Shown piece by piece: positions 29,663-53,284 of a stretch of DNA of 57,994 nt. Source of the stretch: a virus (taxonomy: Duplodnaviria; Caudoviricetes); IMG/VR virus record IMGVR_UViG_3300044971_003295, positions 1 through 57,994 of that record. The stretch is one strand, 5' to 3'. Every line of letters starts with the position of its first letter. Positions within the stretch are counted from its first letter, which is position 1. The translations under genes and the position numbers were made by a program. Under the pieces are notes generated by a model, which did not search any database, was not told the DNA's origin, and saw only the letters and a list, made by a program, of their open reading frames with translations.

Positions 29663-29896
29663 ATGGAACATTTGGAAATTCACGTCATCACAACTGAGTA
29701 CTCTGCTGAGTTGGCACTTGACGCTGGCTTGCTGGAAGAAGACGACACAGAACTCGTCTGCGACCACTGCGAGAAAAACCTTGGTAGCGACCCCGAGACC
29801 TACAAGTTCTCGCCTTTCTGTATCGCTATGAACGACAAAGAAGTCTGGTTCGTCTGCCTAGATTGCTCAGCCCCGCTGATTTACCCCGCTGGCTAG
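29663..29896 (+). CDS. Acidic Zn-finger protein
   Basis: CDHC...CLDC. Confidence 0.6.
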   Translation: MEHLEIHVITTEYSAELALDAGLLEEDDTELVCDHCEKNLGSDPETYKFSPFCIAMNDKEVWFVCLDCSAPLIYPAG

Positions 29897-30004
29897 AACT
29901 TCTCACGAAGAAATCGTTTGTTTATACTTCTAAATTATCTCTCTACGCGAAAATCCTCGTTATCATTTCGTTATCAAACTTTCCACGAAAAGCCCTATCT
30001 CGAT

Positions 30005-30033
30005 TTGCTTTATGTCGGGGGGTAGGCGTAATG
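30005..30033 (+). promoter_or_regulatory. Early sigma70-type promoter
   Basis: TTGCTT-17-TAATGT; similar promoters have -35 boxes at 31705, 33952, 34681, 36876 and 37616. Confidence 0.55.
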
Positions 30034-30067
30034 TAGTCCTTGTTCAGTTATCAGAGAGGAAAACAAA

Positions 30068-30568
30068 ATGGCTGAAAACACAAATCCAAGTGCTACAAAG
30101 GTAGGCGAGGCTCTTTATTTAGAGTTCCGCAAGGGCGTAAATACTGCCCAAGTAATCATCACTCCCGAGGCTCTAACTTCGGCAGGTGTCTATGTTCCAA
30201 CTTCTACTTGGCGTAGGCAGATTTCACAATGGTCGCCACGCAAACAATGGTCGCTCTATACCCCAGAGGGCGAAGTCGTTAGAAGTCGTAGCGAGAACGC
30301 AAAACTTTCGGGTTCGCTAGGAATTGGCAACTCGTCTGCTGGTGCTTACGAGTATGCGACAGAGGCTCTATTGCCTCTCACCACAACACTCAACAACCTA
30401 ATCAACAACGAGTGGGCTTTGTTTGAGAAACCTATTGTTGTAGAGTTCTCGGAAGAGGACTTGGCAAACACAATCAACAACGAAACCCCACAAGCCCTTA
30501 TTCGCAGAATACTCCGAGTTCGCAAAGAGTTCGGTTTCCCAGAAGAACTAATCGCAGAAGAAAAGTAA
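30068..30568 (+). CDS. Hypothetical early protein
   Basis: GAGAGG RBS. Confidence 0.7.
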   Translation: MAENTNPSATKVGEALYLEFRKGVNTAQVIITPEALTSAGVYVPTSTWRRQISQWSPRKQWSLYTPEGEVVRSRSENAKLSGSLGIGNSSAGAYEYATEALLPLTTTLNNLINNEWALFEKPIVVEFSEEDLANTINNETPQALIRRILRVRKEFGFPEELIAEEK

Positions 30569-30582
30569 GAGAGGACTTTCTA

Positions 30583-31641
30583 ATGACTACAACAACAACA
30601 ATCCAAACAGCAGAGTTTGAGGCTATGACCCCAACTAAGCGACTAGAACTTGCTGATAGACTTTATGAGGGTCTTGGCAATCTACTCGCTATGGTCGGTT
30701 CGCAAAACACAGGGTTCTACCCAACTGCCTCTGACTACGCAGACTTGCTAGAAACCCACAAGGGTAAAGCAAGCGAACTTACCAAGCGTAATGCCTCTGA
30801 CCCGACAGCGAAAGCAAAGGCGGAAGATGTGAGCATTGAGGCATTGGTTGGCGAGAACTCCTACGCCCGACCTAATGGCGAACTTTACTACTCTCGTATG
30901 TGGGGCGACCACCAAGACATACAGGTTCTACGCAAAGCCCGAGAGAACAAGCAGTTCATCTTGCTCTATGGAAGTCCTGGCTGTGGCAAAACTGCTCTCG
31001 TTGAGGGTGCGTTCCAAGACGACCTATACACTTTGCTCGGCACAGGCGACACAGAGGTTTCAGACTTTGTTGGTTCTTATGTTCAGACCCCGAGTGGTGG
31101 ATTTGAGTGGATTGACGGAGTTCTAACCCGAGCAGTAGAAGAGGGCAAAGTTCTTCTGATTGACGAGGTTGGTCTGATTGACCCGAAAGTTATGTCGCTT
31201 ATCTATGGACTAATGGACGGACGAGACGAACTAATCATCACCACCAATCCCGAGCGTGGAACTATCAAAGCAAAAGCAGGGTTCTATGTAATCTGTGCCA
31301 CGAACCCTAATGCGCCTGGGGTTCGCCTATCAGAGGCTCTGCTATCTCGCTGTGTAGTTCAGGCAGAAATGACTACTGATTGGAACTTGGCAAAGAAGTT
31401 GGGCGTTCCTGCCTCAATCACAACTGCCTCACAGAACTTGTCGAAAAAGCAGAAGTCGGGTGAAGTTTCTTGGTCGCCACAAATGCGAGAACTCCTAGCG
31501 TTCCGAGACTTGGCAAACACTTTCGGCACTAAGTTCGCAATCGCAAACTTGCTGGCAGTAGCCCCAGAAATGGACAGGGCTGTTGTAGCAGATGTATTCA
31601 CCCGAGTATTCGGTGAAGAGTGTCTGCCAGCAAAAATCTAG
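30583..31641 (+). CDS. MoxR/CbbQ-NirQ-type AAA+ ATPase
   Basis: GSPGCGKT Walker A, LLIDE Walker B, ATNP sensor, EALLSR arginine finger. Confidence 0.9.
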   Translation: MTTTTTIQTAEFEAMTPTKRLELADRLYEGLGNLLAMVGSQNTGFYPTASDYADLLETHKGKASELTKRNASDPTAKAKAEDVSIEALVGENSYARPNGELYYSRMWGDHQDIQVLRKARENKQFILLYGSPGCGKTALVEGAFQDDLYTLLGTGDTEVSDFVGSYVQTPSGGFEWIDGVLTRAVEEGKVLLIDEVGLIDPKVMSLIYGLMDGRDELIITTNPERGTIKAKAGFYVICATNPNAPGVRLSEALLSRCVVQAEMTTDWNLAKKLGVPASITTASQNLSKKQKSGEVSWSPQMRELLAFRDLANTFGTKFAIANLLAVAPEMDRAVVADVFTRVFGEECLPAKI

Positions 31642-31767
31642 ATAACCTCTCTTGTCTAGTCGGGGCAGGGTAGTCAGAAATGGCTACCCTGTTTCTGCCC
31701 CGATTTGACTTGATGTATAAGAGGGCGTAAAGTAAATACCACAAAGTCATTTATGAAAGGAAACGAA

Positions 31768-33585
31768 ATGGCACATCTAATAAACAACTCTGATAAAGAG
31801 CGTAAGACCCCGAGCGAGTGGTTGGGCGTTGGTGCGAGCATTGGCAAAGTAGTCAATGATTGGGCTATGCGAGACGACCTCGTTGTATTTGTTGGCGAGG
31901 AATTGTCGGCTAACGCACCTGCTCTATTCGACCCTGCCAAAGCAGAGATTGAGGTCAATACCAAAATCGCTTTCGGCAACTACGCTAACCCGACTTGGAT
32001 TGGCGACTTCACAGACAGGGATTGCCAATTCGACTTTCCCCGAGCAACAGGGGCAATCTTTCACGAAAGCCTACACGCCAGATTTACTCGCTGGTCATTA
32101 GAGCAATCATCAAAGGACTTAGAGCCTCGGGTCAATGAGATACTTCACCTGCTAGAAGAGGGTCGCATTGAGGCTATGGGCGTTCGTGTAATGCCAGAGA
32201 ACAAAGAGTTCCTACGCACCTCGGCGTTAGAGATTGTCCTAGCAAGCCTAGACCAGAGTGAAGAACCTATTGGTTCGGTTCGTGGTATGGCGAAAGTTGC
32301 CTCGCTCGTTGGTGCGAGAATTGACGCTGGCGTTCTACGCTTGCGAGATGTATCAGATGTGATTGACCTAATCAAAGAGGGTCTAGGTGAGGCTCTTTAC
32401 GAAGAACTACGCTCTATCTGGTCGCAAGCACAACGCCACTACCAGCACAACAACGCAGAACCTCTTTACGCTCTTGCGAAGATGTGGGATAAGTTGGTCG
32501 AAGAAGAGGCAGACAAGAGGGGCGAACCTAAGGGCGGTGGCGGTGGTTGCGGTGGTCTCTCTGTGCCAGCAGATAGCCCACTTGGTAAAGCAATCAAAGA
32601 GGCTCTTGACGAGGCGAAAGACCAATCAGAGATTGGTGCGAACTCGGCTCTCGCTGACCAGCAGACCAAAGAAGATTGGGAAAAAGAGGCTAAGGAAAAA
32701 GCGAACTCTGCCAAGCAACAGCACGAACACAAGAAAACTGCCGAGCAGGTATTCGGGCGTAAAGCAGACGGAACTAGCGAAATGGAAACTAGCGGTTCTC
32801 ACTCCACGCTGAAAGAAACTCGCAAGCCCACTTCGGCAGAACGAGTTGGTGCGGTCAAGATTGCCCAGATGTTAGAAAAGGCAAAGTATCGTGAGCGTGA
32901 TTTGACGATTGTTGGTTCGGTAGTTCCTGCTGGCAAACTACGCACGAAGTTATTGGTTCAGGCACAGGCTCTCAAAGAGCGTGGCGTTCTAACTCCTGTT
33001 GAGGCGTGGCGAAAGAAAACTCGCAAGCAGACAGACGAGCCTACGCTGACGATTGGCGTAATGGTTGATGTGTCTGGTTCTATGGGGAACGCTATGAACC
33101 CTATGGCGAGTATGGCTTGGATTATGTCCGAGGCTGGAAAACGAGTTCAGGCTAAGTCGGCTATGGTCTATTATGGCGAGGGCGTGTTTCCAACTTTGCG
33201 AGTTGGCGAACGCCTAGATGAAGTCAAAGTTTACTCGGCGGTGGACGGAACTGAAAAGTTTGATAAAGCGTTTCAGGCTCTCAATGGAACTTTGGACTTG
33301 CTCTATGGCTCGGGTGCGAGATTGCTCGTTGTAGTTTCAGACGGGGCTTACACCACCGAAGAACAGCGAGCCTGTAAGAAGTGGATAAAGGAGTGCGACA
33401 AGAACGGAGTTGCTGTGGTCTGGCTCAACTTTGATAAGAGTTGGGGCGAGGGCTACATCAAGGACTTTCTCAATGGCACGACAGGCGAGTATCTTCTGAT
33501 TGGCGACAAGCCCGAAGAAGTTGCCACCGAGATTGGCAAGAGGGCAAGCAAATCGCTCTCGGCAATCGGCAAGCGGAACGCCTAA
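31768..33585 (+). CDS. CobT-like protein: N-terminal HExxH metallopeptidase-like domain, C-terminal vWA domain
   Basis: FHESLH...LEEGRIE; MIDAS motifs DVSGSM, GT, SDG; adjacent to the MoxR ATPase. Confidence 0.85.
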   Translation: MAHLINNSDKERKTPSEWLGVGASIGKVVNDWAMRDDLVVFVGEELSANAPALFDPAKAEIEVNTKIAFGNYANPTWIGDFTDRDCQFDFPRATGAIFHESLHARFTRWSLEQSSKDLEPRVNEILHLLEEGRIEAMGVRVMPENKEFLRTSALEIVLASLDQSEEPIGSVRGMAKVASLVGARIDAGVLRLRDVSDVIDLIKEGLGEALYEELRSIWSQAQRHYQHNNAEPLYALAKMWDKLVEEEADKRGEPKGGGGGCGGLSVPADSPLGKAIKEALDEAKDQSEIGANSALADQQTKEDWEKEAKEKANSAKQQHEHKKTAEQVFGRKADGTSEMETSGSHSTLKETRKPTSAERVGAVKIAQMLEKAKYRERDLTIVGSVVPAGKLRTKLLVQAQALKERGVLTPVEAWRKKTRKQTDEPTLTIGVMVDVSGSMGNAMNPMASMAWIMSEAGKRVQAKSAMVYYGEGVFPTLRVGERLDEVKVYSAVDGTEKFDKAFQALNGTLDLLYGSGARLLVVVSDGAYTTEEQRACKKWIKECDKNGVAVVWLNFDKSWGEGYIKDFLNGTTGEYLLIGDKPEEVATEIGKRASKSLSAIGKRNA

Positions 33586-33674
33586 CCGATAGGTTTGGTT
33601 TGGGGCTAGGTATCGTTTCCACCTAGCCCCGAGCCGATTTGACTAACCGATACAAAGAGAGGACAATAAGGGTT

Positions 33675-33950
33675 ATGACTAGAAGTTGGTTTACAGAGTA
33701 TTCATACGGCGATGAAGATGAACTTGCCGTCTACGAAACTAGTTGGTGGACGAGGGCTATGTGGGATAACATACACCACAGAGATACAGAGTGGGGCATT
33801 GTGCTTGCCGACCACTACGACAAGAAAGTCCACGACTTCTCGAAAGTAGACAGAGATGAGGGCGAACTAGTTTGCCAGACCTGCGAACTAACCCCAGAGG
33901 AACTAGACATAAAGCCCACCAAAACAGACGAGGACATTATTTATTCTTGA
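33675..33950 (+). CDS. Hypothetical early protein
   Basis: ORF with H..F...CQTC; ends DIIYS. Confidence 0.6.
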   Translation: MTRSWFTEYSYGDEDELAVYETSWWTRAMWDNIHHRDTEWGIVLADHYDKKVHDFSKVDRDEGELVCQTCELTPEELDIKPTKTDEDIIYS

Positions 33951-34005
33951 CTTGACTTAGGTTGAGAAGTGTGAATAATAGAAGTAGGCAGAGAGAGGAA
34001 AACAA

Positions 34006-34674
34006 ATGCCAAACTGGGTATCAAACTGGGTAAGCGTTCAGGGCAAGAAAGCAGATGTCGAACGATTTATCGAAAAAGCACAACAGCCTCGTCCAACAGG
34101 TATCAACGAGGAAACAGGCGAGTTGGAATACTCGTCAGACGAGCAAGAGGTCTTGTCGTTCTGGAACTTTATTGCCCCACCAGAAGAGGCAGTAAAGAGT
34201 GGCGAATACTTTGGCACTCGGGGTTTCATTGATGGCGAGTCAAAGGGCGACAGCCCTAACAACTGGTATTCGTGGAACAATCGTGAGTGGGGAACGAAAT
34301 GGGACGCTTGCCACCTAGACCCTCACGAAATCGAAGTTGAGGGCGACAACGCCACAAAGTCCTACTCGTTTGAGACAGCGTGGGGTATCCCCGAGCCTGT
34401 GTTTGAGGCTATGGTCGAACAGCACCCCGAACTCAATTTCGACTTTGAGTGCGAAGAAGAGCAGGGTTGGGGTGCGGAGTATCGCGGCGAAGAGGGCGAA
34501 ATCTCTTTGGTCAAACAATGGGACATACCAAACAGCCACGCCGACTATGTTGAGCGTGATAGAGAAAGTAATTGTAATTGTGCTTGGAGTGAGGACACCG
34601 AGGATTGGTATGCGGATTGCCCACTACCCGAGGGTGGAACTGCTGGCGAAGAGGCACAGATTATTTACCAATAA
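34006..34674 (+). CDS. DUF1281/YubB-like ferredoxin-fold protein
   Basis: MPNW..N, WY.W...WGTKW, FETAW..P. Confidence 0.8.
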   Translation: MPNWVSNWVSVQGKKADVERFIEKAQQPRPTGINEETGELEYSSDEQEVLSFWNFIAPPEEAVKSGEYFGTRGFIDGESKGDSPNNWYSWNNREWGTKWDACHLDPHEIEVEGDNATKSYSFETAWGIPEPVFEAMVEQHPELNFDFECEEEQGWGAEYRGEEGEISLVKQWDIPNSHADYVERDRESNCNCAWSEDTEDWYADCPLPEGGTAGEEAQIIYQ

Positions 34675-34732
34675 ATGAACTTGACGCACCTCGCAAGAGG
34701 TGTGTAAGTTTGTTTATAGAAAGCGAGGACAA

Positions 34733-35065
34733 GTGGCAACATCAACAATAAAAGACCTAATCCAATGGGCAGAGGGCAGAGACCCTGACGAGCCTGTGCT
34801 GTGGTATCTATGGACTAAGGACGAGATAGCAGACCGCTTTCCAGACGGACAGCACATCACCAACGAAGAGGCAGACAGGGTTCTAGACGCTTTCTCATTT
34901 CCCGACTACTCTTGGGACGGAATAAACGAGAACTTTTGCGAGGCTCTTGACGAAGAGTTCGGCAGGTTTCGTTGCCAAGATTGCGGTGATTACGACAAAG
35001 AGGCACAGGTGGTAAATGACGAAACTACTTGTCGTGGTTGCGGTGAGGAAAAGGAAGTCGTCTGA
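34733..35065 (+). CDS. Acidic Zn-ribbon protein (paralog A)
   Basis: GAGG RBS with GTG start; CQDC...CRGCGEE. Confidence 0.7.
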   Translation: MATSTIKDLIQWAEGRDPDEPVLWYLWTKDEIADRFPDGQHITNEEADRVLDAFSFPDYSWDGINENFCEALDEEFGRFRCQDCGDYDKEAQVVNDETTCRGCGEEKEVV

Positions 35066-35391
35066 TGTACACGACCATAAAAGAACTCATTGAGAAGTTG
35101 TCCAAGCAAGACGAAAATGAGAAAATCTATGCGATTATCTGGGATAAGACAGACCTAATGCCTGACTTGCCAGACGGACAAGAGTGGTCAGAGGCACAAA
35201 TCACCAAAGTCTTTGATAACTTTTCGATTGACGACAACTCTTGGGAAGCAATCGGTCTTGACGAACAACACGCCAGAACCTCATTGGAAGAGTTCCGGTG
35301 CGAAAACTGCTACGATTTTGACCTACGAACAATTCAGGCTGGAAGCCACCGAGAGTGTCCGACCTGTGGCGAAGAGGAAGAGGTTGTCTAG
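35065..35391 (+). CDS. Acidic Zn-ribbon protein (paralog B)
   Basis: CENC...CPTCGEE; aligns end to end with 34733-35065. Confidence 0.7.
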   Translation: MYTTIKELIEKLSKQDENEKIYAIIWDKTDLMPDLPDGQEWSEAQITKVFDNFSIDDNSWEAIGLDEQHARTSLEEFRCENCYDFDLRTIQAGSHRECPTCGEEEEVV

Positions 35392-35696
35392 TGCGAAAGA
35401 TATACCGAATAGTCGGTTTTCGTGATAAAGAGACCGAAATGGGGTATGGCGACCTACTAAACAAGGTCGTTGAGGTCAAAAATAGCGTAAAAGTCGAAGT
35501 AAATGCTGATACCGCTGTGTTTTGGCAAGAAAAACACCCAAATTTGGAGTTTGGGCAGGTTTTTACGATAAATTATGTCTTTGGTTCGCAGGTAGGCAAC
35601 CGAACTTTCGGATTTTACGAGGATTTGCCTGAAATGGTCGCAGAAAACTCAATTCAGATGAAGTTTTTAGGCGAGGAAGAAGAGAAAATTGTCTGA
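35391..35696 (+). CDS. Hypothetical protein
   Basis: GTG overlapping the upstream stop. Confidence 0.55.
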   Translation: MRKIYRIVGFRDKETEMGYGDLLNKVVEVKNSVKVEVNADTAVFWQEKHPNLEFGQVFTINYVFGSQVGNRTFGFYEDLPEMVAENSIQMKFLGEEEEKIV

Positions 35697-35925
35697 TTTG
35701 GTCGGAAAATACGCAAAAATCGTCAAATACGAGCCTTTTGTGGATAGAAGTGCGCCTCTAATAGTCAAAAAAGGCACGATTTACGAGATTTTGGCCTATA
35801 AAGACGGTATGAGGGGAAAATACTACTATTTTCGGGAAAGACGGGCAGGATTGGGCAGTTATGCGATTTATGAGGCCGAAATTGAGTTTGAGGTCGTAGA
35901 AATCGAAGAAAATGTGTTTTCGTGA
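35689..35925 (+). CDS. Hypothetical protein
   Basis: TTG start, coupled. Confidence 0.5.
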   Translation: MSDLVGKYAKIVKYEPFVDRSAPLIVKKGTIYEILAYKDGMRGKYYYFRERRAGLGSYAIYEAEIEFEVVEIEENVFS

Positions 35926-36002
35926 TAAGTTCGTTATCTAACTTTTGACGAAAAAGCCCAAAAAGGGGCTATGATTATACAAACGAGCAAAAAGGAGTAA
36001 AA

Positions 36003-36374
36003 ATGGGCGACAGGTCTCACATTGTAATTCGGACAAGCAACCCTGCTGATACGATTACCCTCTACGGACATTGGGCAGGAACTACCAACATTGACGCTGT
36101 GCGAAGTGTTATGAGCCGAACAAAAATAGTGGGCGACATTTCGTATCTAACCGCAGAGTTGTTTTACGAGTTTGCGGTTGTTGAGGGCAAATACACAGGT
36201 GTCGGGTTCGACAGTTATGGTATCTGGGTTGGTGATGATGACGGTGCTTGGGCAGACAATCCGAGCGTTTATGTAAATGCCGAAGACGGAACTTTCGACT
36301 ATGAGGGCGAAACCGAAGAGGGCGAAGAAGAAGAAGAAAATGTAATGCTTGACCAAGACATAATTCACCGCTAA
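36003..36374 (+). CDS. Phage hypothetical protein (MGDRS...LY.HW.G type)
   Basis: AAGGAG RBS; own promoter at 35945. Confidence 0.7.
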   Translation: MGDRSHIVIRTSNPADTITLYGHWAGTTNIDAVRSVMSRTKIVGDISYLTAELFYEFAVVEGKYTGVGFDSYGIWVGDDDGAWADNPSVYVNAEDGTFDYEGETEEGEEEEENVMLDQDIIHR

Positions 36375-36401
36375 GATAGACACATCAAACGAGAGGCAAA
36401 A

Positions 36402-36593
36402 ATGGCAAAGGCAAACTTTTACCGCTTTGCGGTGTATGGCATTTCAGGAGTAGAACGCATTGAGGTAATTGCTACCAGCGTTCCCGAGGCGGTCAAAACT
36501 GCCGAAGAGTGGGAACTTGACGGACAGCGACCAATCAAGGTAGAACTAATGAGTAGCACAGCAAGCAAATACGAAATGCTAGGAACGGAATAG
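36402..36593 (+). CDS. Hypothetical protein
   Basis: GAGAGG RBS. Confidence 0.6.
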   Translation: MAKANFYRFAVYGISGVERIEVIATSVPEAVKTAEEWELDGQRPIKVELMSSTASKYEMLGTE

Positions 36594-36595
36594 AA

Positions 36596-36901
36596 ATGCG
36601 TTATCGTGTAGCACTAGGCGAGGTTATTCGTGAGGAACGATTAGCACAGCAACTATTCCAGCGAGAGATTGCTCGTAGAGGCGTAATCTCGGTTGGACAC
36701 CTCAGCGATGTTGAGCGAGGTCAGAAAGAGATTTCGTCTGAACTCTTAGACGGAGTTGCGGGTGGGCTTGGCGTAAAAGCATACGAACTCGTAATACGAG
36801 CAGGTCTAAAAATGGCAGGACAAGAGATACCAGACACGCCAGCCGAACTGCTCGACACCGCACTACAATTTGGATTTGACAAAGAACTCACAAATCACTA
36901 A
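36596..36901 (+). CDS. XRE-family HTH regulator, ClgR-like
   Basis: LGEVIREER..Q...REIA....IS.G.LS.VERG.KE.SSELL matches the actinobacterial ClgR pattern. Confidence 0.75.
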   Translation: MRYRVALGEVIREERLAQQLFQREIARRGVISVGHLSDVERGQKEISSELLDGVAGGLGVKAYELVIRAGLKMAGQEIPDTPAELLDTALQFGFDKELTNH

Positions 36902-36940
36902 ACTCATTACATCAAGCAACACCAAAAACTAGGAGAAAAA

Positions 36941-37420
36941 ATGTCAGAAAAAATTTCAGTTCAGGGTCTAGTGGCAACAACACCACGACACCTCATTACG
37001 CAAGACGGACTACCGATTACCTCGTTCCGTATGGCAAGCACTCACCGCAAGTTCGACAGAGTTAGCAAAAAGTGGGTGGACGGCGAAACTAATTGGTATA
37101 CCATTACGGCGTTTCGTCAGTTGGCAATCAACATAGCAGGTTCGGTTTCTAAGGGCGAGCGAGTTATGGTCAGCGGTGCGTTGCGAGTTCGTGATTGGGA
37201 TAACGGCGAGCGAGCAGGAACTTCTGTTGAGATTGAGGCAGAGGCAGTTGGACACGACCTAAATTGGGGAACAGGAACTTTCACCAGAACTATTCTTGTG
37301 CGTGAACCAGATGAAGAGCCAGACGAGCCAGAAACCTTTGCTAAGATTGTAGTAGAGCCAGAGGCTTTGACTATGCCACCAACCAAAGAAACACCAGCAC
37401 CAGAACCAGAAATGGTCTGA
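36941..37420 (+). CDS. ssb: Single-stranded DNA-binding protein (actinobacterial type)
   Basis: G....P......G....SFR.A...R.FDR....W.DG.T.W....AFR.LA.N...S..KG.RV.V.G.L..R.W. Confidence 0.9.
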   Translation: MSEKISVQGLVATTPRHLITQDGLPITSFRMASTHRKFDRVSKKWVDGETNWYTITAFRQLAINIAGSVSKGERVMVSGALRVRDWDNGERAGTSVEIEAEAVGHDLNWGTGTFTRTILVREPDEEPDEPETFAKIVVEPEALTMPPTKETPAPEPEMV

Positions 37421-37427
37421 TAGAATT

Positions 37428-37504
37428 GGAGTGTCGGGTTTGCCCCCTCGTTTATCCCGACACTCCATAGCCAATCGGGTTTGCCCCCTCATTTACCGAT
37501 TGGC
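37428..37504 (+). ncRNA. Twin hairpins with C-rich loops (candidate anti-RBS sRNA)
   Basis: 11-bp and 9-bp perfect stems of different sequence with near-identical loops TTTGCCCCCTC(G/A)TTTA. Confidence 0.5.
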
Positions 37505-37510
37505 AAAAGA

Positions 37511-37551
37511 AAGCCCCTGCGTTGAGTTTACTCCGCAGGGGTTTTCGCTTT
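37511..37551 (+). terminator. Intrinsic terminator
   Basis: GCCCCTGCG...CGCAGGGGT followed by TTTCGCTTT. Confidence 0.75.
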
Positions 37552-40021: not shown

Positions 40022-40129
40022 CACTCGACAATCGTTGAGGAAGATAGCCCGAGTGTTCTACGGAATAGGAAACTTTTTTATGTCCGTAGAACACAGGGTT
40101 TATCTGAAACAACGCAGAAAGGAAAAGTA

Positions 40130-45449: not shown

Positions 45450-45683
45450 CCCACGCCCTACACCGCAAGGTGTAGGGTTTGGCGTTTGCGGAAAATAAAA
45501 AAAATTCGCTGCGCGAATAAAATAAAAAATAAAAAATCAAAAAACACATTTACAAAAAACACGCCGCGCCCGCCCGTTTGACTTTCACCGCTATCGGTGG
45601 CAAACTATAAATGTAGAGCGGCGGCCTTTCGTTCCCCCCCCCCTGATACCGCCGCTCTACACCTACAAATCGAGAGGAATAAA

Positions 45684-46055
45684 ATGTCGCTAGATTGGAA
45701 CGCGTCAAAAGTCCCAAACATAGATTGGGACAACGAAGATGAGTCAAACCGAGTTGGTCGGTTCGCCTTTGTCTTGATGTTTCTCGGTATCGGTTCGGTA
45801 TCGGAAACCAATGTTGCCGAAGTAATTGTTCGCAACAAAATCCACGAGGCTTTGTTCGGGCCAGCGTATTACTACATAGACGAGGCCACAGGCGTTCGCA
45901 AGAGCGCTTACGACGCCGAGTTTATTCGCAAAATGGTCGGATACAGCACCAATGTTAGCACCGAGCCAAGAGCGAAGTGGCTAAAGCGTATGACCGACAG
46001 CGCAATCGCAGACCAAGTTAGGCAAGCCCCCCAAGCCGAGCCAGCGTTAGTCTAA
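45684..46055 (+). CDS. Cassette gene: hypothetical protein (MSLDW...G..TNV)
   Basis: GAGAGG RBS. Confidence 0.7.
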   Translation: MSLDWNASKVPNIDWDNEDESNRVGRFAFVLMFLGIGSVSETNVAEVIVRNKIHEALFGPAYYYIDEATGVRKSAYDAEFIRKMVGYSTNVSTEPRAKWLKRMTDSAIADQVRQAPQAEPALV

Positions 46056-46112
46056 GCACCAAGACCTGAGTATGTCTAAAACTGCTCACCCACTCCAACA
46101 GCAAGGACAAAA

Positions 46113-46292
46113 ATGCCAAAAAAATCAGTAGTTGATACGAGTGCCAAAGTGTGCGAAATGTGCCTACGAAATCCAGCAAAGGTTGATGTAGTAGTGCCAA
46201 TGGGCTTAGGCGAAAACTACGGCTGGGCTTATTGCGAAATGTCGCTATGCGCCGTATGTGTCGAAAGTCTGCCAGACCTGAAAACCAAATAG
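46113..46292 (+). CDS. Cassette gene: 59-aa CxxC...CxxC protein
   Basis: AAGGA RBS; below the track cutoff. Confidence 0.6.
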   Translation: MPKKSVVDTSAKVCEMCLRNPAKVDVVVPMGLGENYGWAYCEMSLCAVCVESLPDLKTK

Positions 46293-46480
46293 AACCGCAC
46301 CTGAGCAAGTGATAAAACTGCTCGCCTCAAAAAATAAAATAAAAAATTGCGCTCCGCGCAAAATAAAAAATAAAAGCAAAATCCTCATTTAGAAAAGCAT
46401 CGCCGTCGCCGCCGTTTGCGAATGTCAGCGTTATGTGGCAAACTGATAGTGCGGAACAACCCCCGCAGAAATGAGCAATC

Positions 46481-47155
46481 GTGGAAACAGCAACTACCGC
46501 AACACTTGAGGTTCTAAATAAAATGTTCCTCGAAAACACTGGTCGCAGTTTTTTGGACAGTGGCAATGCCTACGGTCGGCACTTTGAACGCCAGCAGTCG
46601 ATTAGTAACGCCGAGCGTGAGCAGGGAAAAACCAGCGTCGATGAATGGGGAAACATCACCGTTCCATTATTCCCAGCAATTTCGGCTGTGGTTGAGTATG
46701 ACCCTGAACTAAATGAACAGTGGAAAAAATTCGATGCCGAACACCCTGACGATTCTTGGCACGATACGATGGGAATGTTCTTAGATGAACTAGGCGTTTC
46801 AAGGACTGGCGACCTTTACAGTGACAGTTTCCGCTACGGGGTCAATTCTTACAACAGCGAAAACTACCTGAGCCAAGATTTCCAAGCCGAGATTTTTGCT
46901 TACGGTTTCGAGATGTATGCCCTGCTTCAGATTCACGGTGGCACTGACATTCGCGGAGGATACACCGCACCCGTAGTGTTCAAGTGCGACTGGGAATCCT
47001 TAGTGACTCTAGGGCAGACAGCGTTCCTGAACTGTGCCGAATGTGATTTTGATTTAGTGATGAATGTTGTTGACGGTATCGTCGAATCAACTGACGACAT
47101 ACCTGACAACTGGGAACTGAAAAACGGTTGCCCACGCTGTAAATCGAAATTCTAA
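46481..47155 (+). CDS. Cassette gene: phage protein (ENTG..FLDSG...GR; QIHGG.D.RGGY..P) with Zn ribbon
   Basis: Promoter, GTG start, enzyme-like conserved motifs. Confidence 0.75.
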   Translation: METATTATLEVLNKMFLENTGRSFLDSGNAYGRHFERQQSISNAEREQGKTSVDEWGNITVPLFPAISAVVEYDPELNEQWKKFDAEHPDDSWHDTMGMFLDELGVSRTGDLYSDSFRYGVNSYNSENYLSQDFQAEIFAYGFEMYALLQIHGGTDIRGGYTAPVVFKCDWESLVTLGQTAFLNCAECDFDLVMNVVDGIVESTDDIPDNWELKNGCPRCKSKF

Positions 47156-47366
47156 CCCCGAACCACCGCCGAGCATTAGACCCCCTAATGCTCGGCGGAA
47201 TCGGCGTTCAAAAATAAAAAAATTCGCTACGCGAATAAAAATAAAAAATAAAAAATAAAATCAAAAGCTCAATTATAAATCGTCGTCGTCGGCCAGGTCG
47301 TTTGACTCGCGACCGCCGATGCGATAGTCTGGTGATGCGGGTCGCCCCCGCAGAAAAGAGTGGAAA

Positions 47367-47798
47367 ATGATTGTACAAATTGTTGAAATGGAGAGAGACG
47401 AAGGTTGCGAGCACTTGGATGATGGCAAGTGCCAGCAGCACCGCATCGTTGGAGAAATCGACACAGACTCAGTGTTCTGGGCCTACGCCGAATTTCTAGA
47501 CAACGGCGAGTGGGTAAGAGATGACGGCGTTGTTTCTTACCAGCGCGACAGCATCGCCGTCCCTAACCTTGAGTATGACCCCGATGTTGCCTTGTTCTTT
47601 GCGGGTCAAGGTTTGGCCAAGGTTGGTGACACCAGAGATTATGACGATTGGGTCAAACTACAGAAACAGGTCAACTGGGAAAATCGAGTTGATGGCGAGT
47701 GCGAGATTTGCCACCACGCCTATCCAGCGAACTGCACTTGCCCGAGCGATGTGGACTGTCCAAATTGCTTAGCAGGCTCAGTCTGCATCTTTCACTAG
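47367..47798 (+). CDS. Cassette gene: Cys-rich protein
   Basis: Promoter; C-terminal CEIC..C.C...CPNC...C..H. Confidence 0.7.
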   Translation: MIVQIVEMERDEGCEHLDDGKCQQHRIVGEIDTDSVFWAYAEFLDNGEWVRDDGVVSYQRDSIAVPNLEYDPDVALFFAGQGLAKVGDTRDYDDWVKLQKQVNWENRVDGECEICHHAYPANCTCPSDVDCPNCLAGSVCIFH

Positions 47799-47852
47799 CA
47801 ACACCGCCTGAGTATGCGGAGAAACTGCTCACCCAACAATAAGGAGAAACTG

Positions 47853-48014
47853 ATGACCAAAAAAGATTATCAACTTATCGCCCAAGCAATCGCTGATACT
47901 TGGTGCGATGCCGCGGCACAACTTGCCATTGCCGAGAACATCGCTAAAGCATTGGCAGACACCAACCCGTTATTTGATAGAGACCGCTTTCTAGCAATGT
48001 GCGGAGTGGCCTGA
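47853..48014 (+). CDS. Cassette gene: small protein (MTKKDY..IA...NP.FD.DRF..CG type)
   Basis: AAGGAG RBS. Confidence 0.7.
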   Translation: MTKKDYQLIAQAIADTWCDAAAQLAIAENIAKALADTNPLFDRDRFLAMCGVA

Positions 48015-48211
48015 ACCACGCCCCAGCCGAAAGGCTGGGGAACAGGCGTTCAAAAAATAAAAATAAAAATAAAAATAAAAATTTACGGCTGCGCCGCAAA
48101 AATAAAAATAAAAGCTCATTTACAAAAAGCACGCGCCGCTCGGTCGTTTGCGTAATGTTGCGTTTCGTGGCAAACTATAAGAGCAGCACCACAACCAAAC
48201 AAGGAGATCAG

Positions 48212-48451
48212 ATGCAAATCACTCACGTAGCAAAGACGGACAGCGGAGATTACACAATTTCTTCGCTACCTTGCCCAAAGTGTTCGGTAGTATTCACCAC
48301 CGAAATCACGGGCGAGCAGTTGTTCAAAATCAACAACAACGCCCTAATTCAAGACATCGGCTTAGACCTTACCGCAGACCAGCGAGAGCAGTTTATCTCA
48401 GGGTATTGCGGAACGTGCTGGGCTGAAGAATTCTTTGGGGATGAGGACTAA
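48212..48451 (+). CDS. Cassette gene: Zn-binding protein (CPKC...RE..ISG.C..CW)
   Basis: AAGGAG RBS. Confidence 0.7.
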   Translation: MQITHVAKTDSGDYTISSLPCPKCSVVFTTEITGEQLFKINNNALIQDIGLDLTADQREQFISGYCGTCWAEEFFGDED

Positions 48452-48573
48452 TGGCACAAGCAGGATACATCAATTGCTCGGGCTGCGGGCGTTTGTTCAG
48501 CGCAGAGAGCAAAGATGAAATGGACTTGCTACTCTCGCACACCTGCGAAGACGAGGAAGGAGAAGAAGAATGA
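48451..48573 (+). CDS. Cassette gene: 40-aa CxxC..H.C peptide
   Basis: TAATG overlap; GAGG RBS. Confidence 0.55.
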   Translation: MAQAGYINCSGCGRLFSAESKDEMDLLLSHTCEDEEGEEE

Positions 48574-48716
48574 ACCCCGAACTCGCGAAAAAATTCGTAG
48601 CAATTCTCAATGCTTACGAAGACCGAGAGATTAGTGCCGAAGAAGCACTAATCCGTATCCAAATCGCCGTAGCCAACGCTAACGAAGATGCGGAACACAA
48701 CGAAATCACTCTCTAA
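48570..48716 (+). CDS. Cassette gene: 48-aa helical peptide
   Basis: ATGA overlap; AAGGAG RBS. Confidence 0.55.
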   Translation: MNPELAKKFVAILNAYEDREISAEEALIRIQIAVANANEDAEHNEITL

Positions 48717-48952
48717 CGCTGCCCGAAGCCCACACCGAAAGGTGTGGGCCTTGGCGTTTGCGAAAAATAAAAAAAAATAAAATTTGCGGCTGCGCCGCAA
48801 AAATAAAAAATAAAACCAAAAGCTCATTTACAAAAGACACGCCGCTCCGCCCGTTTGACTTCCGTTGCCGTATGTGGCAAACTAGTATTGCCAGGCAGTA
48901 AGTAATCCCCCCCCTTTCGTTGCTTACTGCCTGGCCTTATCTAAGGAGATAG

Positions 48953-49135
48953 ATGACCACCGCAACCACCGACAGAATAGAAATGTTGAGCCGAAACTTG
49001 GCCAGACACCAAATCATTATTTCGCTACTAAGCAAAAAACAGAAATGCGATGAAAGCGAAAAACCCTGCGACATTTGCTACGGATTTGATTTAGCAATCA
49101 AACTTGTCCAAGACCAACTAGAACCCGAGAATTAG
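48953..49135 (+). CDS. Cassette gene: hypothetical protein
   Basis: AAGGAG RBS. Confidence 0.65.
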   Translation: MTTATTDRIEMLSRNLARHQIIISLLSKKQKCDESEKPCDICYGFDLAIKLVQDQLEPEN

Positions 49136-49143
49136 GAGAACCA

Positions 49144-49311
49144 ATGATACCTTGCGAAGTGTGCGGAAAGGACACCGCCGACACAGGCGAGCCTTGTGAT
49201 GAGTGTATGAACCCGTCATTCACCAAGCCAGACTTTGGCAGCAGACCTGCTGATGAGTATTTCGCCTACATAAAGAGCGACGCTTACATCGCCTATCTCA
49301 ACAGCAACTAG
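49144..49311 (+). CDS. Cassette gene: 55-aa CxxC...CxxC peptide
   Basis: AGGAG RBS. Confidence 0.55.
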   Translation: MIPCEVCGKDTADTGEPCDECMNPSFTKPDFGSRPADEYFAYIKSDAYIAYLNSN

Positions 49312-49497
49312 CACCGAGCCGCCCTGCCACTTTCGAGTGGCAGGGTTTCGGCTTTGCGGAAAATAAAAATTGCTGCTCCGCAGCAAAAATAAAATTTGCT
49401 GCTCCGCAGCAAAAATAAAAATCTAAAAGCTCATTTATAAAAGACACGCGCCGCTCGGTCGTTTGACTAAGTGCCGTAATTGTGAAAGACTATTCTT

Positions 49498-49683
49498 GGA
49501 CCCAAACGCTGGCTGGTAAAGGCTATGGGCGTTGGCTATGGCGGTCATAGCAATCGGCTTACCAGAGCCGACACAAGATAGCGGAGAGAGTGAATAAAAT
49601 ACCGCTCGCGACCTTAGGCAGTTGCTACCGATTACAAGCCTATAACTGCGTAAGGTGCTAGGGAGAGCAACCCCCTAGCACCG
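49498..49683 (+). ncRNA. Candidate structured RNA carried as cassette cargo or leader
   Basis: Starts at the predicted TSS; at least five helices and a possible pseudoknot; no ORF with an RBS. Confidence 0.5.
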
Positions 49684-49711
49684 AACTCCAACCCAACAAC
49701 AAGGAGATACA

Positions 49712-49954
49712 ATGCCAGAAACACAAATACTCGCAAGGTATGAAGAAGACGGGCTTGCCTGTGAGATTACTTGCGAAAACGGAGAGTATTGGTTTGTAGA
49801 TACTTACCGCACCACCGAAGATAACGAGATGGTATGGCTCAACAATACCGGCTCGCTTACCACCTACGCCGAAGCGTTCGACGCCTTCCGTCTAGACCTA
49901 GACTGCTTCTTCGGCAAGGAGTTTCACCCAACAATGCTAGTCCGCAACAAGTAG
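49712..49954 (+). CDS. Cassette gene: hypothetical protein
   Basis: AAGGAG RBS. Confidence 0.65.
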   Translation: MPETQILARYEEDGLACEITCENGEYWFVDTYRTTEDNEMVWLNNTGSLTTYAEAFDAFRLDLDCFFGKEFHPTMLVRNK

Positions 49955-50153
49955 CAACCACCGACCCCTGCCGAAAGGCAGGGTGTTCGGCGTTTCAAAT
50001 AAAAAATTTGCGGCTGCGCCGCAAAAAATAAAAAGCGGCTACGCCGCAAAATCAAAAGCTCATTTACAAAAGACACGCCGCTCCCCCGATTTGCGAAGTG
50101 TGCCAAATTATGTAATGATTAGATGGGGAACTATCAAAAACAAGGAGAACCTG

Positions 50154-50420
50154 ATGAACAATCAACCACTCAGCGCCACAATCAACAAAGCCCGAGCAAT
50201 CACTTATGTTGCCAGCAACAACCCTGATGCCTTCACCACCGCTCAACTAATCCAGATTATCAAATACGCTAACGCTGTCCTTCACACCACCAGCATAGCC
50301 TTATACCCAGACGGCTTGCCGAAAACGCCTGCTGATGTGAAAGACCAACTAGAGTCAGTAATTGCCAGAGAAGTAGCAATCTTTGAGAGAGAAGTTAGAG
50401 CAACTCTGCCTAAATTCTAA
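50154..50420 (+). CDS. Cassette gene: hypothetical protein
   Basis: AAGGAG RBS. Confidence 0.65.
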   Translation: MNNQPLSATINKARAITYVASNNPDAFTTAQLIQIIKYANAVLHTTSIALYPDGLPKTPADVKDQLESVIAREVAIFEREVRATLPKF

Positions 50421-50548
50421 CCCCGAACTGCCCTGCCTAGTCCCCCCACTAGGCAGGGTTTCGGCGTGAAAAAAATTTGCCGCTGCGCGGCAAAAAAATT
50501 TGCCGCTGCGCGGCAAAAATAATTTTGCGGCTGCGCCGCAAATAAAAT

Positions 50549-50797
50549 CGCTCAACGCGCTTCGCTTGGCCGCCGCGATCTTCCCCGGGTCGATAGCTGA
50601 ACGCTCCTTCGTCGCTTTTCAGCCTCCCCGGGTTCAGACGCTGCTGCCTTCGCTTCGGCGTTTCGCGAATAAAAATGCCGCTTTGCTTCGCTCAGCTGCT
50701 TAGGTCTCCACGGCCGGCGGGCAATCCCGGCTTCGCTGCGCTCATCGGGATGCACCTTGGCCGGGTCGAACCACGCAGCCTCCGCTCGCGACGCGGC
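50549..50797. other. GC-rich non-coding insert rich in GCTTCGC/GCTGCGC mini-hairpins
   Basis: Interrupts one repeat unit between its hairpins and its CATTTA box. Confidence 0.6.
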
Positions 50798-50926
50798 AAA
50801 ATAAAAAATAAAATCTAAATCTAAATCTCATTTACAAAAGACACGCTGCTCCGCCCGTTTGACTAACGTGCCGTTTCGTGATTGACTTAGTGTGCGGGCA
50901 AGCCCGCAGAAAACGAGGTGATGTAA

Positions 50927-51139
50927 ATGAGTTTCGGAATTGATGTTCGGTATCCCGATGTCTTTGTCCAACTTACGGGCGAAGATGGGAACTCCGTTTC
51001 CATTATGGGTCGGGTTGCTAAGGCACTAAGAGATGCTGATGTGCCTAAGGAAGAAATTGACGAATACTACGCTCAATCAATGAGCGGAGATTACGACAAT
51101 CTTCTACGCACCGCTGCCGAGTGGGTATCGGTAGGGTAA
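50927..51139 (+). CDS. Cassette gene: small protein (V.L.G.DGN...I.G.V..AL...SGDY..LL type)
   Basis: Recognisable motif; GAGGTG RBS. Confidence 0.75.
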   Translation: MSFGIDVRYPDVFVQLTGEDGNSVSIMGRVAKALRDADVPKEEIDEYYAQSMSGDYDNLLRTAAEWVSVG

Positions 51140-51198
51140 TCTCCAACACCTGAGCAAGTGTCTAAAAGGCTCACAACCCTAACAAGAAAAGAAAAGAG

Positions 51199-51402
51199 AT
51201 GAAAATGGGCGGACATAAATCCGAACTCTTCACCGCCGATAGCCCAGGCTATCGAGTGCGGTTCAGAGAATACGCCAAAAATTGGTGGCTATACGAAGAC
51301 AGCAAAGGCAAGGAGTGGGTCAAGAAATTTGACGACCCCAGCTCAGCCAAATCGTTTGCCAACAATCTAATCACGACTAATCTGATTTTGTCTGGTTTGT
51401 AG
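51199..51402 (+). CDS. Cassette gene: hypothetical protein
   Basis: ORF following a pseudoknot copy. Confidence 0.55.
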   Translation: MKMGGHKSELFTADSPGYRVRFREYAKNWWLYEDSKGKEWVKKFDDPSSAKSFANNLITTNLILSGL

Positions 51403-51584
51403 CGAGTGCTGAGAAAGGCGACCTTTGCGGTCGCCTTTCTTGGCGTTTCGCACAAATAAAAAATAAAACCAAAAACCTCATTTACAAAGGACACGCCGTC
51501 CCCGCCGAATTGACTAAGTGCCGCAATTGTGGCAAACTGAAAGAGCAACACCTAACCCAAGCACCGCTAACAAAGGAAGACAAA

Positions 51585-51791
51585 ATGCCTGAATACAAAC
51601 TAACAGCAGCAAAAAAGAACCAAATCGCTTCGGTATTCTTCTCAGCACCATCAAACCAAGACGCAATTCTAAAAGCAGTATTTCGTATCTTAGACAACGC
51701 TCGCCTAGACCCTAATAGTTGTTGGGCAATTGGCAAGGTCACCCTAAGCGACAGCAAAGGCGAAACAATTTCAGAAATTCCAGCCAAATAG
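51585..51791 (+). CDS. Cassette gene: hypothetical protein
   Basis: AAGGA RBS. Confidence 0.65.
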   Translation: MPEYKLTAAKKNQIASVFFSAPSNQDAILKAVFRILDNARLDPNSCWAIGKVTLSDSKGETISEIPAK

Positions 51792-52047
51792 GAAAGCACC
51801 GACCCCTGCCGAAAGGCAGGGTTAGGTGCGTTGGCGGAAAATAAAAAATTTGCGGCTGCGCCGCAAAAAATAAAAAATGCGGCTGCGCCGCAAAAGCAAA
51901 AGCTTCATTTAGAAAAGACACGCGCCGCCCGCCGTTTGCGTTTGTCTGCCGTCTATGGCAGACTTAGACCATAACAGAATACCTAGCAGGGTAGGCAACC
52001 CCCCCGCCTGCCCTGCTAGGACAATCCAACTAACTAGGAGAAAAAAA

Positions 52048-52284
52048 ATGTTATTTACCGCAATTATGCTATGTGCCTTGACGCTAGCAACTTTCGTTTC
52101 TAATTCGGTTATCAGCACACTATTTGCCGAAGCAATCCACTTGGGAAGTGCCGAAGAAATTTGGTTGTTCGGCAGTATTTGGTTTGTGTTGCTTATCAAT
52201 TCCGTAGTCTTAGCAGGTGTGGCAATCAAAGAAATTATGGACTACAACGACAACCGCCCACGCTATCCACTCCGCAACAGATAA
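52048..52284 (+). CDS. Cassette gene: two-TM membrane protein
   Basis: AGGAG RBS; two hydrophobic helices. Confidence 0.65.
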   Translation: MLFTAIMLCALTLATFVSNSVISTLFAEAIHLGSAEEIWLFGSIWFVLLINSVVLAGVAIKEIMDYNDNRPRYPLRNR

Positions 52285-52487
52285 CCCCGAAATGCCCTGC
52301 CTAGTTTACGCTAGGCAGGGTTTCGGCGTTGCGGATCAAAAATAAAAATGCGGCTGCGCCGCAAAAATAAAAAATAAAACCAAAAGCTCATTTACAAAAG
52401 ACACGCCGCCCCCGTTGTTTGCGTTTGTCGCTATTCTATGTTTAGATAGTAGTGCGGAACTACCCGCCTAATTAGGAGATGATGTAA

Positions 52488-52802
52488 GTGCCAGAACTAG
52501 AAAGCAAATTCACTTGGTCCGTATTCTCAGACAACAACTGCCAATGCGGACAAGAACACTCTTTCGAGACAGACAAACTGCCAGACATTAGCCAGCCCGT
52601 AGTTATCCAAGATGTTTGGAATTGCGGAGAAGTTTGGTATAACTTCTTCTCAAACGGGGATAACGAATTCTACGCAGACCCGAAACACGAACTCTGCCCC
52701 GTCTGCCAGACGAACGCTATGCCGAAAGACCAAGCGAGTTGGTGTGATGAGTGTGTAGCCTTAGACGAACGCCGAGCCGAGCGAGCGTTATACGGAGAAT
52801 AA
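52488..52802 (+). CDS. Cassette gene: Cys-rich protein
   Basis: AGGAG RBS; CQC..H, CPVC..CDEC. Confidence 0.65.
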   Translation: MPELESKFTWSVFSDNNCQCGQEHSFETDKLPDISQPVVIQDVWNCGEVWYNFFSNGDNEFYADPKHELCPVCQTNAMPKDQASWCDECVALDERRAERALYGE

Positions 52803-53025
52803 CCACCAAGCCACTTGCCTAGTATCTACCCCCCTAGATACTAGGCAAGTTTGGCGGCGGAAAATAAAAAATTTGCGGCTGCGCCGCAAAATAAAACCAA
52901 AAATAAAAAATAAAATCAAAAGCACCATTAGAAAAGCCACGCCGCTCCCGCCGTTTGCGTTTGTCTGCCGTCTATGGCAGACTTAGAGCGTAGCACCACC
53001 ACACCCTAAATCAAAGGAAATCACA

Positions 53026-53157
53026 ATGCCAGAGTATCTTGGACTATGCCAAACCTGCGCCGAACGACACCCTGAACACCGACCAGCCGTTGCTATCTAT
53101 TGGACACTTCTAGGTGGTATGTGTGCCGAACACTTCGCAACTTATGAACAAAACTAA
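53026..53157 (+). CDS. Cassette gene: 43-aa CxxC..C..H peptide
   Basis: AAGGA RBS. Confidence 0.55.
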   Translation: MPEYLGLCQTCAERHPEHRPAVAIYWTLLGGMCAEHFATYEQN

Positions 53158-53284
53158 ATAACACCGAGCCACTCACCGAGTATCTACCCCCCCCCCAGAT
53201 ACTCGGTGAGTTTCGGCGGCGGAAAATAAAAAAAATTTTTTCCGCTTACGCGGAAAAATAAATTTTGCTGCTCCGCAGCAAAAT

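Follow-up and report, generated by a model that had tools for sequence, protein, structure and literature searches.

Restriction is known to act mainly on the phage DNA that is exposed first; the experimental evidence comes from T5-like and T7-like phages and concerns single motifs. In the account given in PMC10644984, restriction-modification systems act on T5 and BF23 only at sites in the first-step-transfer (FST) repeat, and T5-like phages are described as resistant to Type I and Type II systems unless a site falls in that repeat (PMC10644984; 10.1101/866236). A Murciavirus is reported to evade a Type I system when its first-injected region is without the motif, and the same source describes the leading region in conjugative plasmids, the first part to enter, as poor in restriction targets and rich in anti-defence genes (PMC12455610). 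According to its Discussion, earlier surveys of avoidance ignored where the sites are located. Here, we examine the IMG/VR virus record IMGVR_UViG_3300044971_003295 (Duplodnaviria; Caudoviricetes), a stretch of 57,994 b that was analysed over its full length and is referred to below as the window. Short palindromes are almost entirely missing from 23,592 b of it (29699..53290). The preliminary description of this DNA built on the idea that just the first-entering DNA must lack sites, for which the reports on T5/BF23 (PMC10644984) and Murciavirus (PMC12455610) provide experimental precedent. Among the papers listed in literature searches for regional palindrome purges, no comparable case was found in the titles and abstract openings.

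Extent of the purged segment

Ten 4-bp palindromes (ACGT, AGCT, ATAT, CATG, CCGG, GATC, GGCC, GTAC, TGCA and TTAA), called sites here, were counted across the window. The purged domain holds 58 sites in total and falls into two parts, a core (29699..42800, + strand) with 8 sites in 13.1 kb and a less completely purged part (42801..53290, + strand) with 50 sites in 10.5 kb, where CGCG, GCGC and GCNGC are tolerated. These counts agree with the preliminary description, in which palindromes were near-absent from ~29.7 to 42.8 kb and rare up to 53.3 kb. Site density in 1–29.7 kb is 16–57 per kb. On the left side, the sites stop with a GTAC at 29,698; none is found in 29,699–35,066, and the first one thereafter is at 35,067. 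On the right side, the last site of the purged domain is at 52,385 and sites are back from 53,291, at 26–41 per kb.

Six of the words (ACGT, AGCT, CATG, GATC, TGCA and TTAA) were not found at all in 29,720–42,800, and the remainder were found once (GTAC), twice (CCGG and GGCC) or three times (ATAT). In 1–29,719, each of these words is found 73–135 times, with the exception of GATC at 26. Most of the words had been described as common outside the segment, but GATC is under-represented there too (26 vs 88 expected); the genome encodes a Dam-like methyltransferase. Between 29,263 and 54,413, GATC occurs just at 48,206, 50,577 and 52,334, the three positions listed previously. The depletion had also been said to hold inside long genes, a description that does not suit this segment; its genes are mostly short, the longest encoding 610 and 352 aa.

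Specificity of the depletion

Composition was controlled for using a maximal-order Markov expectation for all 136 reverse-complement classes of 4-mers across 29.7–42.8 kb. The 13 classes with the lowest observed/expected values were all palindromes, among them TGCA (0 observed, 54 expected), AGCT (0/42), TTAA (0/41), ACGT (0/37) and GATC (0/33). CTAG and AATT were undepleted, TCGA and TATA were mildly depleted, and CGCG and GCGC were depleted in the left half only. The A>T skew of the purged region is strong (0.1–0.27).

Codon usage was controlled for by shuffling synonymous codons within each gene 200 times with the amino acids preserved. The 21 genes in 29.7–42.8 kb contain 7 sites vs 245±13 after shuffling (minimum 212), and the 17 genes in 42.8–53.3 kb contain 31 vs 166±10. 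Control regions gave 345 vs 412±14 (5–20.4 kb) and 112 vs 123±9 (53.3–57.5 kb). The depletion, first noted by eye, thus persists in both the observed/expected and the codon-preserving comparison.

Longer and less regular words are affected in the core as well. Interrupted palindromes were missing or nearly so, with GTNAC at 0 observed vs 37 expected, TTNAA at 0/28, GGNCC at 0/15, GANTC at 1/35 and CCNGG at 2/17, as were the degenerate palindromes GTCAAC (0 vs 9) and CTCAAG (0 vs 8). The asymmetric, Type IIS-like words GGATG, GAATG and GGAGG were each found 0 times vs 9–11 expected. Words of these kinds are presumably the targets of FokI, HincII and other enzymes, and we know of no common restriction enzyme for ATAT. 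The depletion is real, far beyond chance and specific to restriction-type words, and it is not due to codon usage.

Maintenance of the purge

Another contig from IMG/VR, G001 (51,704 b), aligns collinearly with the window at ~93% identity. The core is the more conserved part of the purged domain, with 4.9% divergence between the two, and the right part (42801..53290) is a hypervariable small-gene array that differs by 11.4% plus rearrangements. The substitutions separating the two sequences were placed at random in 300 trials and the resulting sites counted. In the core, 633 substitutions in 12,856 aligned b have left 8 sites in each sequence; the simulated number was 98±9 (minimum 67), i.e. 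about 90 new sites were expected. Across 42.8–53.3 kb, 524 substitutions are accompanied by 16 and 18 sites in the window and G001, respectively, vs 80±8 simulated. Neutral behaviour was found in the left flank (643 and 674 sites vs 684 simulated) and in the 4.2-kb island that contains the terminase gene to the right of the purge (114 and 115 vs 123). The left edge of the purge in G001 is the same GTAC as in the window. As the substitutions in the core added no net sites and the flanks fit the simulation, the purge is held in place by current selection and is not inherited composition.

A 0.7-kb lineage-specific insertion (50105..50803) that is absent from G001 holds 12 of the 58 residual sites. 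The possibility that residual sites lie mainly in recent insertions was considered and holds only partly, with 16 sites in 3,392 unaligned b vs 42 in 20,200 aligned b; 12 of those 16 sit in this one insertion.

The purge in related phages

The window represents part of the ~135-kb genome of a siphovirus-type freshwater actinophage, a member of a large uncultured family. It is the whole of the IMG/VR record, which is linear, and the CheckV completeness of 43% implies the genome size of ~135 kb. Among named phages, Actinomycetia phage DSL-LC01 (OQ999401.1, 129,469 b), from a lake, is the nearest; it has the same gene order and a large terminase (TerL) 77% identical to that of the window. More distant are Microbacterium phage Pumpernickel (62% TerL identity) and Gordonia phage GodonK (49%). 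Near-intact matches to the window DNA were found in lake-water metagenomes (20 matches from 18 studies, nine of them possibly the source sample). A megablast search of GenBank phages with the purge core gave no match, nor did a search of IMG/VR and metagenome contigs with a 30-mer from the right end, made to see whether the phage is represented by a contig that extends further.

A TerL search of IMG/VR found 418 relatives, of which the best 80 were examined, and nine contigs were read whole or largely. A regional purge of 15–26 kb was found in each of G002, G003, G004, G007, G009 and G010. In every genome having one, it starts 0.5–3.5 kb past the endolysin gene and ends near TerL, and it starts at the same place, just ahead of an operon made up of a homologue of the window gene at 30,068 and the genes for an AAA ATPase and a VWA protein. 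The words affected vary from one genome to another. The complete genome G002 (137.5 kb) is without ACGT, ATAT, CATG, GCGC, GGCC, GTAC, TCGA, TGCA and TTAA over ~30–45 kb, and its purge keeps AGCT and GATC. ACGT, AGCT, CATG, CCGG, GATC, GGCC, TGCA and TTAA are gone over 18 kb of G010, which keeps ATAT, GTAC, CGCG and GCGC. Six words (AGCT, CCGG, CGCG, GATC, GCGC and GGCC) are absent throughout the 48.6 kb of G007 and six more from 22–48 kb. The complete genome G003 (135,069 b) has no ACGT, AGCT, GATC or GCGC anywhere, with an additional regional loss of AATT, ATAT, GTAC and GGCC over ~15 kb.

Several words are absent genome-wide in G003, G007, G008 and DSL-LC01, the last having no ATAT, no TTAA, very few AATT and no regional purge. 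A regional purge was also not seen in G006 and several other loci, and in no relative examined were all 10–12 words absent genome-wide. Using a strict rule, under which a word was scored as purged if it was expected at least six times and observed at no more than 10% of expected, at least four purged words were found in the 7 kb lying 3–10 kb upstream of TerL in 15 of 40 loci, and none in 10 of them. Downstream of TerL, at least four were found in three of the 15 loci with data, and all three of these are genome-wide purgers. A fixed map position with changing words is the outcome that would be expected if differing host restriction repertoires acted on one vulnerable segment.

Gene content and candidate promoters

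Nearly all of the genes in the purged segment are on the + strand. The left third is an operon-like cluster encoding a 166-aa protein, an AAA ATPase, a 610-aa protein, a YubB/DUF1281-like protein, a helix-turn-helix (HTH) protein and a single-stranded DNA-binding (SSB)-like protein. The AAA ATPase (30583..31641, + strand) is MoxR/CobS-like. Its 610-aa partner (31753..33585, + strand) has a weak VWA (CoxE-like) match below the Pfam cut-off and shares homology with the DSL-LC01 'cobalamin biosynthesis protein'. The YubB/DUF1281_C (Api92-like) protein (34006..34674, + strand) is acidic (pI 4.1) and homologous to gene 13 of Pumpernickel, which is located in the terminal repeat of that phage, and the SSB-like protein (36941..37420, + strand) belongs to phrog_44.

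Protein scans by Pfam and/or PHROGs covered 40 proteins encoded in 27.3–56 kb, out of ~75 ORFs from 27 kb on. No A1/A2-type transfer protein was found among these 40, the remaining short ORFs being outside the scan, and no nuclease family was detected among the scanned proteins of the region. Many of the small genes in the array encode very acidic proteins (pI 4.1–4.3), and none of the small acidic proteins examined as a possible Ocr-like DNA mimic matches a known anti-restriction family. A DUF3846 protein is encoded at 44,258–44,626; as an anti-restriction candidate, DUF3846 was found mentioned in the literature in one unrelated paper only.

Between 38261 and 52476 there are 17 near-identical candidate promoter cassettes, each of which lies within the purge and on the + strand. 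Each is composed of, in order, a GC hairpin flanked by A-tracts, a box with the sequence CAWTTANAWAA, a GC-rich spacer, a -35 and a -10 element, a leader hairpin, GAGGA and ATG. The -35 element is TTGACT or TTGCGT, followed after 17 nt by a -10 element of the cAaACT/TAGATT type (a hexamer such as CAAACT or TAGATT). Only one match to the box was found on the - strand. Judged by eye, the cassettes resemble host promoters of the sigma-70/sigma-A type, each probably serving one small gene. The 17 host-type candidate promoters, all on the + strand, point to an early region, and the segment would be an immediate-early array. That this DNA is expressed first, ahead of two phage methyltransferases, had been proposed in the preliminary description, and its early character is supported by these promoters and by the location of both methyltransferase genes outside the purge; its order of entry is something that we infer.

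On the + strand, the hairpins ahead of the cassettes (38200–53300, intergenic) are flanked on each side by runs of A. On the - strand, the same hairpins resemble intrinsic terminators, several with C-GNA-G triloops (GCGTAGC), and would be predicted to stop antisense and not sense transcription. Most of the CGCG and GCGC remaining in the purged region is located in these hairpins. Joints between cassettes (e.g. 38,250 to 43,478) were found in contigs of other runs, cassettes being gained and lost in natural populations.

Edges, terminase island and a second purged block

The left edge of the purge lies ~30 nt inside a small ORF (29,668–29,896), and the co-oriented gene upstream (29,471–29,628) is full of sites. 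Because the edge falls within an ORF, it is more likely to reflect a physical boundary, or one due to recombination, than to mark where a transcription unit ends; a second point in favour of a physical edge is that the late gene TerL is purged too in the G007 clade. Just left of the edge are ACTTTTAACG iterons (29161..29309), in three direct copies and one inverted copy that are 56–59 b apart. The right edge lies in a cluster (53197..53817) made up of hairpins, two perfect 35-b repeats (53,285–53,319 and 53,329–53,363) and then repeats of 58–91 b; ~500 b of repeat-rich DNA at this edge is apparently non-coding.

Beyond the right edge is the unpurged island (53291..57503, + strand), which contains genes for an NlpC/P60 protein (54,282–54,932), a peptidoglycan-binding protein (55,469–55,963) and TerL (56,037–57,449, + strand). 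The final bases of the window (57504..57994, - strand) are again site-free, with 0 sites in 491 b, which corrects the preliminary description and marks the start of a second purged block. It includes a 58-aa gene on the - strand (57,701–57,877) with a promoter-like TTGACT-N16-TAGCCT. In relatives, the second block is ~2 kb long and consists of small - strand genes with a host-type promoter-like site, the content being non-homologous between sub-clades. The block past TerL may be made up of high-turnover cassettes drawn from the same purged pool.

The TerL stop codon is spanned by a 122-b tandem duplication (57396–57639, 86–91% identical), for which no match was found in 88 related sequences; being private to this contig, the duplication is uninformative on the origin of the island. 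Many long contigs among the 80 TerL loci, the window and G001 included, end 0.2–2.4 kb past TerL. These ends are in the hypervariable - strand block and look like assembly breaks due to repeats or microdiversity rather than DNA ends.

Other features of the window

The window also encodes collagen-like tail fibres, ribonucleotide reductase, ThyX, a dNMP kinase, a tmRNA, two tRNAs and an endolysin (28,375–29,184). The tRNA genes, for tRNA-Met and tRNA-Leu, are at 16,648–16,931. The tmRNA gene (10472–10804) was identified by ARAGORN with the tag peptide AESRSAFALAA, and could be of use in identifying the host. Outside the purge are two methyltransferase genes, one for a Dam-like N6-adenine methyltransferase (13356..13856, + strand) and one for a piece of a C5-cytosine methylase (14803..15399, + strand). 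The latter matches only the N-terminal 77 positions of the Pfam profile, and the ORF may be truncated, split or interrupted.

Possible causes of the purge

We consider it somewhat better than an even chance (a probability of about 0.55) that 29.70–53.29 kb is an immediate-early region purged of Type II/IIS words under selection imposed by staged exposure. The DNA of the segment would lie in the cytoplasm at a time when the host's restriction enzymes still work, and a single cut there would be lethal. The remaining genome would arrive later, or already protected by products of the segment, and could thus keep its sites. A purge this complete implies that each site is strongly harmful in the segment and harmless next door, and timing is the simplest physical reason for such a difference. 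Host restriction-modification systems as the agent, staged entry and the choice of the edge (29.70 or 53.29 kb) that forms the DNA end are all steps that we infer.

Several observations weigh against staged exposure. No known anti-restriction family was found among the 40 scanned proteins of 27.3–56 kb, ESM Atlas also naming none. The island keeps a normal site density in relatives with TerL 87–91% identical and the next ~2 kb is purged; with an island followed by a second purged block, no single monotonic order of entry explains the pattern. In T5 itself the FST is not purged (627 sites vs 750 expected, and 68.6 per kb vs 64.3 elsewhere), and the repeats of Pumpernickel and GodonK are also without such a purge. 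The magnitude of the purge described here is therefore without a counterpart among the phages checked.

Further points, on both sides, concern the genome ends. In favour of staged exposure, exact long terminal repeats are found over the homologous gene array in Pumpernickel (19,963 b) and GodonK (7,581 b), and the homology of TerL to that of long-repeat phages argues for fixed ends. The Pumpernickel repeat holds homologues of the window genes at 27,284, 28,375, 34,006 and 55,469. Against it, by synteny a long repeat in this phage would start upstream of 27,284, at least 2.4 kb to the left of the purge edge, and these 2.4 kb at the left end are the most site-rich DNA of the window (44–57 sites per kb). 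If a long repeat does start before 27,284, the entering end might be at 53.3 kb rather than 29.7 kb. No motif shared between the repeat ends of Pumpernickel and GodonK and the purge edges was seen. Depth was taken from assembled Logan contigs across 24–44 kb, with one figure per contig, and all 23 runs are kept as contigs, so that molecule ends are invisible in them. No step in contig depth was found at 29.7 kb in three runs (X2: 14 and 15.7; X16: 21.7, 25.8 and 24.0; X14: 26.9, 20 and 25.5), which argues against the purge being a two-copy repeat that begins at this point, and contigs of other runs bridge the left edge. Depth was lower left of ~24.9–27 kb in four runs, which strain mixture could equally explain, and this was not counted as a repeat edge. 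Contigs from two other runs (X14 and X16) carry a 244-b deletion variant (26726–26971). The phage may have a short repeat located at 29.7 kb, or a long repeat with its start further left. The virion end that the preliminary description placed at 29.3–29.9 kb finds no support in contig depth, and the Pumpernickel synteny would place the start of a repeat further left.

A more specific form of the proposal, held only tentatively, is that delivery itself is staged across this large family of uncultured freshwater actinophages. The sharp-edged purge would then be the footprint of the first-delivered DNA, each lineage's purged words would mirror the restriction repertoire of the host population infected by it, and the conserved AAA-VWA pair at the purge edge would take part in resuming transfer or setting up protection. 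The island would imply that exposure depends on more than the distance from one end, with either both flanks exposed or a shielding that depends on transcription. It is more doubtful that vulnerability tracks early transcription instead of the order of entry, with the DNA shielded early on (for example by a co-injected or host coating protein) and host RNA polymerase stripping the immediate-early units, which alone would have to be free of sites wherever they are located. Both purged compartments are indeed small-gene arrays with host-type promoters (+ strand, 38.3–52.4 kb; - strand, the block past TerL), and the late-type island between them (NlpC/P60, peptidoglycan-binding protein and TerL) is unpurged. 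However, TerL is purged in the G007 clade, the left edge falls in an ORF that follows an unpurged gene on the same strand and shows no recognisable promoter, and no coating protein was recognised. We know of no precedent for shielding that is stripped by early transcription. The agent could instead be one or more early endonucleases encoded by the phage, which would destroy host DNA and require only the phage DNA present at that time to lack their sites. This has the same geometry as staged exposure to host enzymes, it is Davison's proposal for T5 A1 and it is argued for T5 in the preprint 10.1101/866236, but 10–12 words that vary between close lineages would need many fast-changing nucleases and no nuclease family was found among the scanned proteins of the region, making it unlikely.

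Similarly unlikely is a mosaic origin, with the segment imported from a lineage purged genome-wide and retaining its composition. Lineages with words absent genome-wide do exist (G003, G007, G008 and DSL-LC01), cassette turnover is high and one 0.7-kb insertion brought 12 sites. Against this, the 633 substitutions since the split from G001 brought no net sites while the flanks are neutral and the edge identical, and no relative examined lacks all 10–12 words genome-wide. We are also inclined to discount a purge that marks a long direct terminal repeat specifically left unprotected, for example if the copy made during packaging escapes phage methylation. Exact repeats of 7.6 kb and 20 kb lie over the homologous array in relatives, the phage encodes methyltransferases, and both edges are sharp. 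This explanation has to contend with the lack of a depth step at 29.7 kb in three runs, with a Pumpernickel repeat that includes the endolysin gene, which is site-rich in the window, and with the fact that the repeat of neither cultured relative is purged; hemimethylated DNA is, moreover, usually protected. A cause unconnected with restriction, whether composition, strand bias or an assembly chimera, is highly improbable. The strong A>T skew would fit it, but the depletion survives the Markov and codon controls and affects symmetric or restriction-type words alone, the independent contig G001 has the same structure, and contigs of other runs bridge the left edge.

If staged exposure is the correct explanation, sequence alone would suffice to map staged entry, or a segment exposed early, in unculturable phages. 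The purged words, ATAT included, would provide an estimate, from the side of the phage, of which restriction enzymes are at work in natural host populations, and the strongest signal would escape statistics on site avoidance that are computed over whole genomes.

Comparison with known systems

The closest parallel is T5, in which the FST, as outlined in the sources cited above, is a terminal early region whose sites alone decide sensitivity, with pre-early functions protecting the rest. The repeat-rich, non-coding border of the T5 region (the injection stop signal) resembles 53.2–53.8 kb of the window, which, like the iterons at 29,161–29,309, would be only a candidate for such a border, and long terminal repeats are found in relatives of this phage. 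The T5 FST is 8–10 kb, as opposed to 24 kb here, and A1/A2-like genes were not recognised here. Two-step entry is a feature of T5 that would have to be extended to this phage, and the unpurged island followed by a purged block is without a T5 counterpart.

In T7, host RNA polymerase pulls in the early region, which has one-way host-type promoters and then a terminator. The window resembles this in that all 17 candidate promoters are one-way (+ strand) and are followed by the hairpin cluster at 53.2–53.4 kb, a putative terminator. Unlike T7, the phage has a siphovirus-type genome of ~135 kb and no Ocr-like gene was recognised. In the T7-like Murciavirus, confronted with the Type I system Mme2I, selection by restriction is described as focused on the first-injected segment (PMC12455610). 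Such cases involve one Type I motif and a few kb, whereas 10–13 of the 16 4-bp palindromes, together with 5-bp and asymmetric words, are affected over 23.6 kb here.

The purged region also encodes SSB-like and YubB/DUF1281-like proteins, which may recall the conjugative-plasmid leading region, a resemblance that is only a lead. The yub genes are located in the leading region of F. Plasmid DNA, unlike that of this phage, enters single-stranded.

Genome-wide avoidance in phages involves the same kinds of words. Here, the avoidance is sub-genomic with base-pair-sharp edges, and is superimposed on a weaker genome-wide avoidance of GATC. What appears to be new is the loss of more than 15 words over 24 kb between edges of this sharpness, under current selection, at a fixed position with lineage-specific words, and with a second, genome-wide layer in some lineages. 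The principle, established in T5-like and T7-like phages for single motifs, seems to have left a near-absolute signature in abundant uncultured phages of lakes.

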